Notes: a model not told the origin generated them from the sequence alone. DNA of 64,000 bases from an uncultured Prevotella sp. (GCF_937922495.1 NZ_CALAIU010000021.1), one strand, 5' to 3'; positions 1,165 through 60,255 are shown, numbered from the stretch's first letter. Numbers and translations: made by a program.

Positions 1165-1290
1165 AAGCTGGAAAGCGGCGTTTCGCCGGTCGTGCGACTG
1201 CAGTCATACATTCGTCTCACTATAGTGAAAATCATTTCCCACTATAGTGAAAAACATTTCCCACTATAGTGAGACGCCCCGAGAAGCAGC
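1165..1290. repeat. Palindromic repeat element, copy 1: GGTCGTGCGACTGCAGT head followed by 3 copies of the 12 bp palindrome TCACTATAGTGA at 22 bp spacing
   Basis: (C)CACTATAGTGA occurs at 1217-1228, 1240-1250 and 1262-1272. The same family recurs at 10950-11045 and 53975-54090. Confidence 0.8.
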
Positions 1291-1316
1291 GCTTGCTGAC
1301 TGTCAAAGTGATGATT

Positions 1317-1427
1317 TATGACCCGAAAAAGCATGAGTTATGACCCGAAAAAGCATGGGTTATGACCCGAAAGGGTATGGGTTACGACCCGAAAGAGCAT
1401 AGGGGGCGACCCGTAAGGGTATGGGGT
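1317..1427. repeat. Tandem direct repeat of about 22 bp in 5 degenerate copies (TTATGACCCGAAAAAGCATGRG)
   Basis: Unit boundaries read directly from the sequence are 1317, 1339, 1361, 1383 and 1408. The repeats are contiguous with no spacers. Confidence 0.85.
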
Positions 1428-10949: not shown

Positions 10950-11045
10950 GAAAAGCATTGCTCTTTTGGTCGTGCGACTACAATGAGGCATATTTCTCAC
11001 TATAATAATGAGACGAATGGATGACTATAATGAGATGAATTTTCC
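10950..11045. repeat. Palindromic repeat element, copy 2 (degenerate)
   Basis: TGAAAAGCATTGCTCTTTTGGTCGTGCGACTACAATGAG followed by degenerate palindromes (CTCACTATAATAATGAGA, GACTATAATGAGA). Confidence 0.7.
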
Positions 11046-14250: not shown

Positions 14251-14601
14251 TTTATATACACCAAGCATATTCAAAACTACAGAATAAGACAAAGCATTAA
14301 TAGTGCTAACTACATTATCCAAAGCTTTTCTCCCCTCTGTTAGCACCCAGACAATAAGACTATCACAAAAACGAAGAATACAGCCCTTATTTTGTTATAT
14401 TTCATGTTGTATTTTGGCAAATGAGAGAAATTACATGGTTTTTGATAGGATTTGCAAGTTTTTTGGAAGAAATTGCCATTTATATTTGTTCTTTGAATGC
14501 TTATCTTTGCATAAGATTGGCTGCACTCGGCAATCTGAAAACAAGTTTTCATTGCGCTCGCTTGCACAATCTTTGCATAATAACACATAAAATAATCAAT
14601 T

Positions 14602-19765: not shown

Positions 19766-19918
19766 AAGAACTGTTTCTTCCAAAGATTTGCCGCAACAAA
19801 CGCCATTCTGCGTCATTCATTGGAAAGACGGTGCTATACATATTAAATATAGGGTGCCATACATTAAGCATACGGCGCCATACACGAACAAGGATATCAA
19901 CTTAACACATCAAGAATA

Positions 19919-26060: not shown

Positions 26061-26201
26061 AAAAAGTTTTTCCTTTTTTTACCCTCACACCCTCACAAAT
26101 ATGCCTGAAACGCCCTGTATATCGGGGTTTCAGGTGTGAGGGTAAGTGTTTTTACCCTCACACTTACCCTCACACCCTCACTCTTCCGGCAGGAAAGCAT
26201 C
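26061..26201. repeat. 'ACCCTCAC' hairpin repeat element, copy A (about 140 bp, terminator-like)
   Basis: TTTTTACCCTCACACCCTCAC...CTGAAACGCCCTGTATATCGGGGTTTCAG...GTGTGAGGGTAAGTGTTTTT...TCTTCCGGCAGGAAAGCATC. A near-identical copy lies at 46105-46277. Confidence 0.85.
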
Positions 26202-45499: not shown

Positions 45500-45800
45500 C
45501 TGGTTCTTGACCACGAATCTCCCGAATCCCACGAATATATACCATGTCACAACCTACAAGATTCGTCCGATTCGTGCAATTCGTGTTCAAAAAAAACATT
45601 TGCGTATATATTAAGTTGAACACGAGATTTGTCGAAGCCCCACTGATTAAAGGTAAGTAATCTCCCGAATGTCCCGAATATTCATTTTTGAGTCGTAAAT
45701 AAAAAGATTCGTTTGATTCGTGCGATTAGTGTTCGAAAAAAATATATTCGCGTATGAGTTATATTAACTTGACCACTAATCTCCCGAATCTCCCGAATCA
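45500..45800. repeat. Tandem duplication of about 2.5 copies of a roughly 140 bp unit in a 1.1 kb non-coding region
   Basis: The sub-motif TTGACCACKAATCTCCCGAAT occurs at about 45508, 45659 (a variant) and 45770. The sub-motif GATTCGTYYGATTCGTGCRATTMGTGTTCRAAAAAAA occurs at about 45561 and 45700. Confidence 0.75.
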
Positions 45801-46104: not shown

Positions 46105-46277
46105 AAAAAAAGTTTTTTTGTTTTTTTACCCTCACACCCTCACTTTTCGGCTGAAACGCCCTGTTTATCGGGGTTTCAATGGTGAGGGTAAGTGTGAGGG
46201 CAAAACTTTTACCCTCACACCCTCACCATTGCCCTCACACTCCCATCACACCCTCGCTCTTCCGGCAGGAAAGCATC
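46105..46277. repeat. 'ACCCTCAC' hairpin repeat element, copy B
   Basis: Same orientation and core as copy A, ending TCTTCCGGCAGGAAAGCATC. It carries extra CCCTCAC units. Confidence 0.85.
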
Positions 46278-46416
46278 AGCTTGACGGACATTCCTGTATA
46301 TGCATTTAACGGAAGAGAACAAAATTTCCCCTAACAAGTAAAGCCCCACTGCGTCATCCCACATAATATATAGCGTCATCCCCTATAATATATAATGTGG
46401 CAGGAACAAGCCCCAC

Positions 46417-53188: not shown

Positions 53189-53980
53189 ATGAAATCAACA
53201 GACAACAAGAAGACTGAATCAACTGACAAGATCGGCAGATACGGATTCCTGGCAGAACCGTTCCACTGCGACTTCTCCAAGAAGCTCTTCATGGGACACC
53301 TGGGCAACCATCTGCTCAATGCAGCCGACTTCCATTCCAACGACCGCGACTTCGGAATGAACTATCTGAACCCTATCCACAAGACATGGGTACTTTCGCG
53401 CCTCGCCATAGAGATGACCGATATGCCAGCGGCATACGAGAAGTTCGACGTGGAGACATGGGTGGAAAGCGCCATGAGATACTTCACGAACAGGAACTTC
53501 CGCATCAGCAGTCCCGACGACAGCACGGTATACGGCTACGGCAGAAGTGTGTGGGCAATGATCGACACCGAAACCAGGCAGCCGCAGAACATCATGGAGA
53601 TACGCGACGGGGAAATCATGCGCTACATCGATACCGAAAAAGAATGCCCCATCGGTCCGCTCTCGCGTGTGAAGATGAGCAAGGACGCCGAACTGCTGCG
53701 CACCATCGACACCCATTACAGCGACGTGGACGTGAACGGACATATCAACAGCGTGAAATACATCGAGCACGTGATCGACCTCTTCCCCATAGACTGGTAC
53801 AAGAGCCACCGCATCAAGCGCTTCGACATTGCCTACGTGGCCGAGAGCCACTACGGCGACCAGCTCAAGTTCTACCGCGAGAAGGTGGACGACAACACCT
53901 TCCACATAAGGATCTGCAAGTCAAACAGCGAGACGGGTGAGACGGAAGTAGTGAGAAGCATGGTAAGGTTTGACAGCTGA
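53189..53980 (+). CDS. Acyl-ACP thioesterase
   Basis: 263 aa tandem hotdog protein. The conserved motifs are NGHINSVKYIEHVID and FDIAYVAES. Confidence 0.7.
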   Translation: MKSTDNKKTESTDKIGRYGFLAEPFHCDFSKKLFMGHLGNHLLNAADFHSNDRDFGMNYLNPIHKTWVLSRLAIEMTDMPAAYEKFDVETWVESAMRYFTNRNFRISSPDDSTVYGYGRSVWAMIDTETRQPQNIMEIRDGEIMRYIDTEKECPIGPLSRVKMSKDAELLRTIDTHYSDVDVNGHINSVKYIEHVIDLFPIDWYKSHRIKRFDIAYVAESHYGDQLKFYREKVDDNTFHIRICKSNSETGETEVVRSMVRFDS

Positions 53981-54090
53981 AAAGCATTGCTCCGCCGGGC
54001 GTGCGACTACAGTGAGAAGTGTTTTTCACTATAGTGAGAAGTGTTTTCCACTATAGTGAAAAATACTTTTCTCTACCGTGACACGACCAA
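53975..54090. repeat. Palindromic repeat element, copy 3
   Basis: TGAAAAGCATTGCTCCGCCGGGCGTGCGACTACAGTGAG followed by 3 CACTATAGTGA-type palindromes at 22 bp spacing, ending GTGACACGACC (inverted to the GGTCGTGCGAC head). Confidence 0.8.
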
Positions 54091-54190
54091 TGGAGCAGAA
54101 CTTTCCGCCCGATGGATTGCAGCTTTGCAGCCAGGGCAGCCGTGGTTGGCACTGCGGATAAAAATATATGGAATGTTATGGGGGTATAAA

Positions 54191-59827: not shown

Positions 59828-59982
59828 ATCCTTGTTTTTTTGTCGTTATGATAATCATGAGGCAAAGATACAATTCCTCCAACAGGCAGGCAAATGCAAA
59901 TATCTATCCCATGATAGAGAATATCTTTTCTTTCAGGACATCGCCTCTCCACATCCATATACGAATGAAACATCAAACAAGA

Positions 59983-60075
59983 CCTGCAGGATTGAGATAT
60001 TATCCTTTCAGAACCTGCAGGATTGAAATATTATCCTTTCAAAACTTGCAGGATTGAAATATTATTCTTTCCTTT
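59983..60075. repeat. 3 tandem copies of a 31 bp unit (CYTGCAGGATTGARATATTATCCTTTCARAA)
   Basis: The units start at 59983, 60014 and 60045. Each contains a 5 bp inverted repeat AGGAT-n9-ATCCT. Confidence 0.85.
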
Positions 60076-60084
60076 GCACCAAGA

Positions 60085-60255
60085 GAACTATCACGGGGTG
60101 CTGAGTGGACTCAGCTGAGATTATACCCATAGAACCTGATGCGGATAATGCCGCCGAAGGGAAAATGATATAACTTCATTATCTTCTACACAAAGCCCCT
60201 ATTCCCAGACGGATGCGGAATCCGCCGAAACAAGGAATCAGGTTTTTTTTTCTGT
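60085..60255 (+). ncRNA. TPP (THI-box) riboswitch with terminator-type expression platform
   Basis: The aptamer reads CACGGGGUGCUGAGUGGACUCAGCUGAGAUUAUACCCAUAGAACCUGAUGCGGAUAAUGCCGCCGAAGGGAA, with the CUGAGA and ACCUGAUCUGGAUAAUGCCAGCGUAGGGAA consensus. A downstream hairpin followed by U9 (60243-60251) precedes thiS. Confidence 0.85.

Follow-up and report, generated by a model that had tools for sequence, protein, structure and literature searches.

A dispersed array of 22-bp-phased palindromes in a gut Prevotella genome, also found in HU-HIG gene leaders, is a possible platform for cooperative protein binding

What is the role of a short palindromic repeat that occurs three times in 64,000 nucleotides of DNA from an uncultured Prevotella sp. 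(GCF_937922495.1, NZ_CALAIU010000021.1)? In this stretch, referred to at its full length as the window, a first reading, made from the sequence alone, had singled out three loci (1165-1290, 10950-11045 and 53975-54090; hereafter loci 1, 2 and 3) in which a common head is followed by palindromes spaced 22 bp apart. It had offered two main explanations: an array of sites for cooperative binding by a dimeric protein, or a small non-autonomous transposable element of the miniature inverted-repeat kind (MITE) with terminal inverted repeats. Our own analysis leans tentatively towards an answer that draws on both, in which the repeat may be a platform where dimers of a DNA-binding protein, probably of the HU-HIG family, bind cooperatively, and may have been copied around the genome on a MITE-like element. 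The two explanations are compatible, since a MITE-like vehicle can carry an array of binding sites.

The three loci are copies of a dispersed intergenic repeat of about 130 bp, two of them intact (loci 1 and 3) and one decayed (locus 2), and they can be aligned across some 130 columns. The pattern TCACTATAGTGA, with up to two mismatches allowed, matches nine times in the window against 1.5 matches expected, and none of 100 shuffled sequences reached nine; the family is thus something other than random AT-rich similarity. The 20-nt head GGTCGTGCGACTACAGTGAG, with up to three mismatches allowed, matches at 1188, 10968 and 53997 and nowhere else in the window (zero matches expected), so that the head described as common to the three loci is indeed theirs alone. 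Tandem Repeats Finder (TRF) detects a period of 22 bp at 1218-1272 (96% matches) and at 54006-54059 (93%). What does not vary within the unit is the 10-mer CACTATAGTG, of which locus 1 has three copies and locus 3 has two; the extended form of the unit is TTYC-CACTATAGTG-RRAA. As for the two or three perfect 12-bp palindromes that each locus had been said to hold, the 22-bp phase is found in loci 1 and 3, but the perfect 12-mer occurs only once in each (at 1217 and 54026, respectively), the remaining units being CCACTATAGTGA. Both the head (...GACTRCAGTS) and the tail (CTCTACCGTG) turn out to be degenerate units that keep the 22-bp register, which brings the count at loci 1 and 3 to four in-phase units each, with zero to four mismatches and the outer units degenerate. 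Outside the units lie inverted arms made of a small GAAGCnnnGCTTC-like palindrome and GGTCGTS. At locus 3 the tail GTGACACGACC (54078-54088) is inverted relative to the head, just as had been noticed, and the arms reach out to GAAAAGCATTGCTCC and GGAGCAGAACTTTCC.

The sequence-only reading had called for a wider search for the palindrome. Species-representative genomes scanned with the pattern CACTATAGTGA-N11-CACTATAG gave 10 loci (a stricter earlier pattern matched none), and metagenome contigs scanned with the same pattern gave 90 loci among the matches listed, so that 100 loci were analysed over both scans. Labels such as L011 and L037 denote loci recovered in these scans and in the protein fetches described below. 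The 100 loci fall into 26 sequence clusters. Three of these (L012, L017 and L033) lie inside long open reading frames (ORFs), have two units only and look like chance. The other 23 are intergenic arrays from Bacteroides, Prevotellaceae, Porphyromonadaceae, Mediterranea and other Bacteroidales; one array sits on a contig labelled Clostridium sp. CAG:302, and Chitinophaga provides a two-unit case. Four in-phase units are found in 14 of the 23 clusters, five in two, three in two and two in three, while the two remaining clusters are expanded to 12 and at least 24 units. The spacing among the collected arrays is 22 bp almost without exception, and a shuffled control of about 1 Mb contained no three-unit array. 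Even between lineages with fully diverged spacers, the core (8-10 bp) and the exact phase of 22 bp persist, and both recur in intergenic DNA of many Bacteroidales lineages. The four-unit array is a conserved cis-element of Bacteroidota and not peculiar to the window genome.

At two independent loci, L011 and L037, the array lies just upstream of a gene for an HU-HIG protein (PF18291). HU-HIG is a Bacteroidota-specific family of HU-like DNA-binding proteins that evolves fast and has expanded lineage by lineage; its C-termini are of the winged helix-turn-helix (wHTH), immunoglobulin (Ig) or glycine-rich kind, and it has no conserved operon partners (PMC5499826). Homologues of the L037 protein, which ends in a winged-helix tail, were fetched by protein sequence alone, yielding 13 loci, which represent four to five species (B. 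thetaiotaomicron, B. congonensis, B. reticulotermitis and Parabacteroides). All 13 have four ACTATAGT cores in 22-bp phase, placed in fixed columns between the promoter and the start codon: about 21 bp separate it from the preceding Bacteroides -7 box TAnCTTTG (TAACTTTG or TACCTTTG), and about 90 bp from the following ATG. These loci belong to two genomic neighbourhoods, one beside a SusD-type polysaccharide utilization locus and the other beside a Big_5 gene. When five leaders are aligned, the cores are invariant and the array is free of indels, the spacers and the rest of the leader having diverged. At L011, the leader of a Prevotellaceae HU-HIG gene from the glycine-rich subclade contains four to five copies of the same core, with the -7 box near 300, the array at 470-567 and the ATG at 677. 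Homologues of the L011 protein have other four-unit arrays in the same place, again with palindromic cores: 23-bp units (AAGTATACTATACTT) in L123 and 22-bp units (AAAATACCTATTTT) in L125 and L126. Loci 1 and 3 of the window share with the HU-HIG leaders the design of four units, 22-bp phase and ACTATAGT core. The occurrence of the same array in the 5' leaders of HU-HIG genes suggests that those proteins bind the array. An HU-like gene beside the L088 array was left out of this count: it is part of an independent insertion into a GTGAGGG hot spot, and its 3' end faces the array.

In the AlphaFold model of the B. thetaiotaomicron HU-HIG protein, residues 140-200 form a confidently predicted winged helix with the order H-H-H-beta-beta (predicted local distance difference test score, pLDDT, 77-88). 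The HU domain is modelled with low confidence, the alignment being shallow, and only the C-terminal wHTH is usable. The nearest PDB folds to this domain are wHTH DNA binders, among them the centromere-binding proteins AspA and TubR, at weak E-values of at least 5e-3.

In the arrangement that we favour, each palindrome would bind one dimer of a sequence-specific DNA-binding protein, the likeliest binder being an HU-HIG protein, for example one of the subclade with a C-terminal winged helix. The 22-bp spacing, close to two helical turns, would set four dimers on one face of the DNA and thereby allow them to bind cooperatively. Where the complex forms between the promoter and the start codon of an HU-HIG gene, it could mediate autoregulation. 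The window copies would be extra binding platforms at gene 3' ends, serving as roadblocks, insulators or titration sites, and copies would have spread through MITE-like transposition or recombination. A comparable arrangement is known from operator arrays that serve autoregulation in gene leaders, such as the NrdR boxes (acaCwAtATaTwGtgt), which are 16 bp long and occur in pairs spaced by about 31-32 bp, only upstream of nrd genes. Like the window sites, they are AT-centred palindromes with CAC...GTG half-sites, placed in tandem at integral helical turns near a promoter; unlike them, the window sites are 10-12 bp long, form groups of four at a spacing of 22 bp, and occur both in HU-HIG leaders and as dispersed copies.

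Many of the collected arrays are flanked by a second, lineage-specific array of 22-bp units with a palindromic core: CATTACTAATG in L013, GTATGCATAC in L019, where it stands on both sides and is inverted, GAAGCnnnGCTTC in L043, and an array at 1311-1425 in the window. Flanking arrays with other palindromic cores, such as the last, may be sites for paralogous proteins. A more sweeping proposal would make four-unit phased palindromic arrays the cognate sites of HU-HIG proteins at large, with paralogues co-diversifying with cores of their own (CACTATAGTG, AGTATAnTATACT, AAATACCTATTT, GAAGCnnnGCTTC) and autoregulating, single or composite arrays (for instance A and B at 1170-1425) being scattered in MITE-like fashion, and the BrickBuilt element discussed below representing one instance. 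We regard this extension as speculative and rather doubtful.

How well does binding by an HU-HIG protein hold up? Phased palindromes for cooperative binding of dimers, as first suggested, give the best fit to the material (core and 22-bp phase kept, four units the commonest number, arrays in HU-HIG leaders), but several points weigh against the reading in its full form. The link between protein and site is positional. The loci of the collection were preselected for the core, and only those fetched by protein are independent evidence of its conservation. Among six distinct HU-HIG leaders examined, two are without such an array (L127 and the second paralogue in L110), and a third, L129, holds only an 11-bp repeat, located upstream of the promoter. 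There is no HU-HIG gene in the 64-kb window, where the copies lie at gene 3' ends, nor does any of the approximately 10 window-type copies in related contigs adjoin one; the window copies are dispersed copies rather than leader arrays. The arrays of HU-HIG leaders are transcribed leader sequence, which leaves room for a role as RNA; the window copies fold well as hairpins, and on one strand their units resemble weak intrinsic terminators. The authors who defined the HU-HIG family argued, furthermore, that a role as sequence-specific transcription factors was unlikely (PMC5499826). Our confidence in HU-HIG binding as such stays somewhat short of even, because the window copies do not lie beside an HU-HIG gene.

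The rival that fares best has the arrays transcribed and acting as RNA hairpins. The HU-HIG leader would then be bound by protein as RNA or adopt alternative hairpins, and the window copies would be stabilizers in 3' untranslated regions or back-up bidirectional terminators, in the manner of the repetitive extragenic palindromic sequences (REPs) and the bacterial interspersed mosaic elements (BIMEs). REP/BIME and RIP elements of Enterobacteria are short imperfect palindromes dispersed in extragenic DNA, typically at gene 3' ends and in many cases clustered, and have been proposed to act in mRNA stabilization, termination and nucleoid organization. Some have a site for a protein of the HU/IHF family, as RIP/BIME-1 has for IHF, and REPs are mobilized by RAYT Y1 transposases, which recognize a GTAG-headed hairpin. 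REPs differ from the window family in that they are not strictly phased 22-bp tandems and are species-specific; extragenic palindromes are present here, but neither a GTAG head nor a RAYT gene is evident.

We rate an RNA role as doubtful. The HU-HIG arrays are transcribed, because they are downstream of the -7 box; however, no hairpin position is kept among orthologous HU-HIG leaders. Their spacers are one 12-mer (GAACGAAAGRGA) in either orientation, and the spacers able to pair vary by species: s0 with s1 in B. thetaiotaomicron, s1 with s2 in B. congonensis and s2 with s3 in B. reticulotermitis, the spacers of L037 being mostly direct. Since complementary neighbouring spacers differ between orthologues, this argues against a conserved RNA structure. 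Locus 3 can be folded as one long hairpin, with a free energy of -62.5 kcal/mol (z -7.2) as RNA and -33.4 kcal/mol (z -6.9) as DNA, whereas many arrays have all-direct spacers (L034, L054 and locus 1 among them) and can form stems of 3-7 bp only. As to termination, the minus-strand units of locus 1 read UUUUUCAC-UAUA-GUGGGAAA followed by UGUUUUU and were flagged as terminator-like in a scan (6-17 pairs, 3-5 of them GC); none was flagged in locus 3, and the stems are AT-rich and weak. A strong hmuR terminator, moreover, already precedes locus 1. At locus 3, which lies between convergent genes, a switch in spacer orientation puts U-runs after the hairpins on both strands. Spacer orientation agrees with incoming transcription at loci 1 and 3 and at L034, L054 and L058, but disagrees with it at L043 and L048. 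The G-U versus A-C asymmetry relative to the gene strand (11 matches, 6 mismatches) separates RNA and DNA roles neither way. Two general features speak for DNA: the core is kept in sequence, beyond its pairing potential, and an exact spacing of 22 bp would be needless for RNA hairpins. In Rfam, the window loci have no match and the HU-HIG leader has sub-threshold, spurious matches only. We judge a reading in terms of protein bound to double-stranded DNA to be more likely than one in terms of RNA. The FopS/GibS small RNA family of Bacteroides was considered separately and found unrelated, its members having a single-stranded seed and a terminator and being already in Rfam.

Could the repeat be purely selfish? 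It would then be a MITE, or something like a REP, that encloses a minisatellite as BrickBuilt does and has no function for the host, its palindromes and arms serving as transposase or recombinase sites or being simply slippage-prone repeats, and its occurrence in HU-HIG leaders reflecting insertion preference or old insertions. The anatomy is that of a MITE: copies are small (about 130 bp), have no coding capacity, are bounded by inverted arms (GAAAAGCATTGCTCCGCCGGGCGTG, CACGACCAATGGAGCAGAACTTTCC; arm consensus GRAAGCnnnGCTTCTCC-GGTCGTCT) and are dispersed in unrelated intergenic regions. Besides the three window loci, at least nine further unrelated loci in related metagenome contigs (L034, L043, L048, L054, L058, L060 and others) have the same arms, and the four-unit design recurs in such related elements; about 10 loci combine window-type arms of this consensus with A-rich spacers and stand beside unrelated housekeeping genes. 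Unit number varies among species, with four or five units at locus 3 and 12 and at least 24 in L055 and L087, and a decayed copy exists in locus 2. However, the core is kept across families and the arms are lineage-specific, the reverse of what a transposon would predict. That the unit number is fixed at four and that the array keeps one position in HU-HIG leaders, in differing genomic contexts, argues for a function. No transposase adjoins any copy examined.

The marks of recent movement were sought as well. Flanks of about 12 copies aligned at their arms contain no consistent target-site duplication, a weak negative given how indistinct the outer boundary is. Neither an empty site nor a polymorphism in presence or absence was found at locus 3, which is fixed in nine strains and in two related species; more distant homologues of the neighbouring thioesterase gene lie in an ilv operon context and hence do not offer orthologous sites. 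Plasmid and phage collections and viral contigs contain no match to the array. The MITE proposed in the sequence-only reading is thus borne out in its arms, its dispersal and its long-hairpin fold, but neither a target-site duplication nor an empty site nor a parent element was found for it. We consider a purely selfish nature unlikely; the MITE description fits the vehicle in the window genome. Two more specific forms of mobility were rejected. Tn7- or Mu-type ends with 22-bp transposase sites do not agree with the lack of a nearby transposase, with the palindromic cores or with the existence of long expansions; and a tRNA att site beside locus 3 is discounted for want of an integrase and because a terminator hairpin of its own separates the tRNA from the element.

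The closest described parallel is BrickBuilt of P. gingivalis, a MITE containing a minisatellite, whose brick of 23 nt (AGACCATAGTATCCTCTCATATG) is accompanied by inverted repeats of IS5-like type (GAGACCTTTGCA) (Klein et al. 2015, PMC4596501). The element is strictly intergenic, is predicted to form a long stem-loop, and has a leader arm and a tail arm that contain inverted repeats. It comprises 1-23 units and was reported from P. gingivalis and P. gulae only; upstream of the HU-family gene PGN_0872 lies its shortest copy, which is 84 nt long and has no arms (PMC4596501). When the brick is read in tandem, it resolves into a perfect 12-bp palindrome, TCTCATATGAGA, and an 11-bp spacer, so that BrickBuilt and the window family have the same unit design: a 12-bp AT-centred palindrome (TCTCATATGAGA versus TCACTATAGTGA) and a spacer of 10-11 bp, in units of 22-23 bp and variable number between arms with inverted ends. 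They differ in the period (23 versus 22 bp), in the long, distinct leader and tail of BrickBuilt, in unit number (1-23 versus mostly four) and in the sequences of units and arms, which are unrelated. The brick palindrome is absent from the window and from all collected loci, and identity of the two elements was rejected, brick and inverted repeats differing in sequence and the design alone being shared. The analogy suggests that BrickBuilt and the window family could be parallel members of one broader class.

Two observations concern the way in which arrays change. In the environmental contigs L055 (2080-2350) and L087 (4200-4757) the core has multiplied into 12 and at least 24 perfect units of 22 bp (CACTATAGTGACAATACATGTA and CACTGTAGTGACAGAGCAACTT), and the array can therefore act as an expanding minisatellite. 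In orthologous arrays (the L110, L114, L117 and L037 leaders; L054 compared with L108), single 12-bp spacers appear flipped, the palindromic cores staying unmoved. Such flips could be the expected product of inversion by recombination between two palindromic cores, gene conversion being an alternative.

The least tenable explanation traces the arrays to an integrated replicon, as iterons of the plasmid type, as its replication origin or as a centromere resembling parS. Theta-replicating iteron plasmids (pPS10, R6K) and centromere arrays bound by wHTH or RHH proteins (tubC/TubR, AspA) contain 3-7 phased repeats of about 22 bp, with dimers on one face of the DNA for cooperative binding, and the half-site TTTCAC..GTGAAA resembles parS. 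Four contiguous 22-bp direct repeats, the parS-like half-site and the mobile-element remnants adjoining locus 1 would agree with such an origin, which is nonetheless highly improbable, as three copies occur within 64 kb of chromosomal genes, the many chromosomal copies have neither a rep, par or initiator gene close by nor any context of replication or segregation, no plasmid, phage or viral contig matches, and the same array is found in HU-HIG leaders. A CRISPR array was rejected, too, since the units are contiguous and the 12-bp "spacers" are variants of one motif. So was a phage promoter of the T7/SP6 type: the core resembles its CACTATAG, and all literature matches to the 12-mer are T7-promoter primers, but the arrays are chromosomal, occur in many lineages and are absent from viral contigs and phage genomes.

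We now turn to the structure of the individual loci. Locus 1 comprises a left arm at 1170-1195 (plus strand), formed by GGAAAGCGGCGTTTC, the outer GAAGCnnnGCTTC-like motif, and GCCGGTCGTGC, and alignable with the arms of L043, L054, L058 and L108; an A-array at 1196-1271, with GACTGCAGTC at 1196 (degenerate) and CACTATAGTG at 1218, 1240 and 1262 in 22-bp phase, separated by the spacers AAAAtCATTTCC and AAAAACATTTCC; and a right arm at 1272-1296 (plus strand), AGACGCCCCGAGAAGCAGCGCTTGC, inverted relative to the left arm. A B-array, overlooked in the first reading, follows 40 bp away, at 1311-1425 (plus strand). It has five 22-bp units (ATGACCCGAAAAAGCATGAGTT; TRF period 22, 4.1-5.0 copies), each containing the quasi-palindrome GGGTTAYGACCC as well as a GAAAAGCAT motif that is akin to the outer motif of the arms, and an orthologous array exists in L040.

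Locus 2 (10950-11045, plus strand) opens with the head GAAAAGCATTGCTCTTTTGGTCGTGC; its units are GACTACAATG at 10976, CACTATAATA at 10998 and GACTATAATG at 11023, the last at a spacing of 25 bp, and the arm-like GAGACGAATGGA comes directly after the first core. None of the units is perfect. Locus 2 is a truncated, mutated and decayed copy, and the perfect palindromes formerly ascribed to it are mutated units, out of phase at 25 bp.

Locus 3 has a left arm at 53979-54004 (plus strand), GAAAAGCATTGCTCCGCCGGGCGTGC, directly after the TGA stop of the thioesterase gene (53978-53980). Its A-array, at 54005-54080, has GACTACAGTG at 54005, CACTATAGTG at 54027 and 54049, and CTCTACCGTG at 54071, again in 22-bp phase; the spacers are AGAAGTGTTTTT and AGAAGTGTTTTC, after which the orientation switches to AAAAATACTTTT. 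The right arm, at 54081-54106 (plus strand), is ACACGACCAATGGAGCAGAACTTTCC, inverted relative to the left one. In nine strains the locus is identical save for a GT indel, and the same site holds five units in two related species (L031 and L082).

The host is a Prevotellaceae of the human gut and the DNA is chromosomal. The thioesterase protein is present on human-gut metagenome contigs, and its named relatives are from Prevotellaceae, Prevotella and Xylanibacter. Window genes form an ordinary chromosomal set that includes hmuY, hmuR, a glycosyltransferase gene, RecQ, an acyl-acyl carrier protein (ACP) thioesterase, thiamine genes and a tRNA; Rfam matches in the window are limited to a cobalamin riboswitch, a thiamine pyrophosphate (TPP) riboswitch and the tRNA. 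The immediate neighbours of the three loci are hmuR, the glycosyltransferase and thioesterase genes and the tRNA. Locus 1 lies beyond hmuR and its terminator; locus 2 adjoins the stop codon of the glycosyltransferase gene (11050, minus strand), and locus 3 that of the thioesterase gene (53980). Hence the placement at gene 3' ends is upheld, strictly for loci 2 and 3 and past a terminator for locus 1. The decayed gene cluster reported beside locus 1 is real as well: the segment 1-1160 contains an Xre-type helix-turn-helix (HTH) gene that has become a pseudogene (minus strand, about 400-560), together with what is left of a phage-like ORF (750-1016), both mobile-element debris.

Genes for TonB-dependent receptors or SusC-like proteins stand beside several arrays, 220-660 bp upstream in L014, L021 and L034 and as hmuR, downstream of which the array lies, in the window; this proximity may be due to chance, such genes being very common in Bacteroidales. 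A second dispersed repeat family, of about 150-170 bp, is represented at 26075-26200 and 46120-46290 by ACCCTCAC and GTGAGGG motifs around a hairpin (GAAACGCCCTGT.TATCGGGGTTTCA), both copies terminating in TCTTCCGGCAGGAAAGCATC. The motif GGTGAGGGCAAAATTTGCCCTCACC, related to this second family, marks a strain-variable insertion hot spot beside the array of the L021 cluster (L021, L024, L088 and L102). Three 31-bp units in tandem, each including an inverted repeat (AGGAT...ATCCT), are found at 59978-60071, directly upstream of the promoter and TPP riboswitch (60084-60179), and may be a regulator-binding array for the thiamine operon. Alternating blocks of 9-bp motifs (AATCTCCCG, GATTCGTGC and their complements) occupy a gene-free stretch of about 300 bp at 45500-45800. 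Still other short tandem repeats, different in sequence and with a period of 21-22 bp, are present at 46351-46394, 14422-14476 and 19842-19884, and may belong to the same architectural class of 22-bp arrays.

What would follow for the organism and its relatives depends on which answer holds. If the arrays do not bind HU-HIG proteins, they would constitute a new family of MITE or REP-like elements, usable as strain markers, as their unit number varies, and a source of assembly breaks. If they do, they might, on the more sweeping proposal above, add a previously unrecognized layer of nucleoid organization, insulation or termination in gut Bacteroidales, and dispersed repeats such as those in the window, along with BrickBuilt of P. 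gingivalis, could be read as mobile arrays of binding sites rather than junk minisatellites. Through their positional link, the repeat and this abundant protein family alike become testable, and binding, if true, would bear on gene insulation, termination and nucleoid structure in the dominant phylum of the gut.

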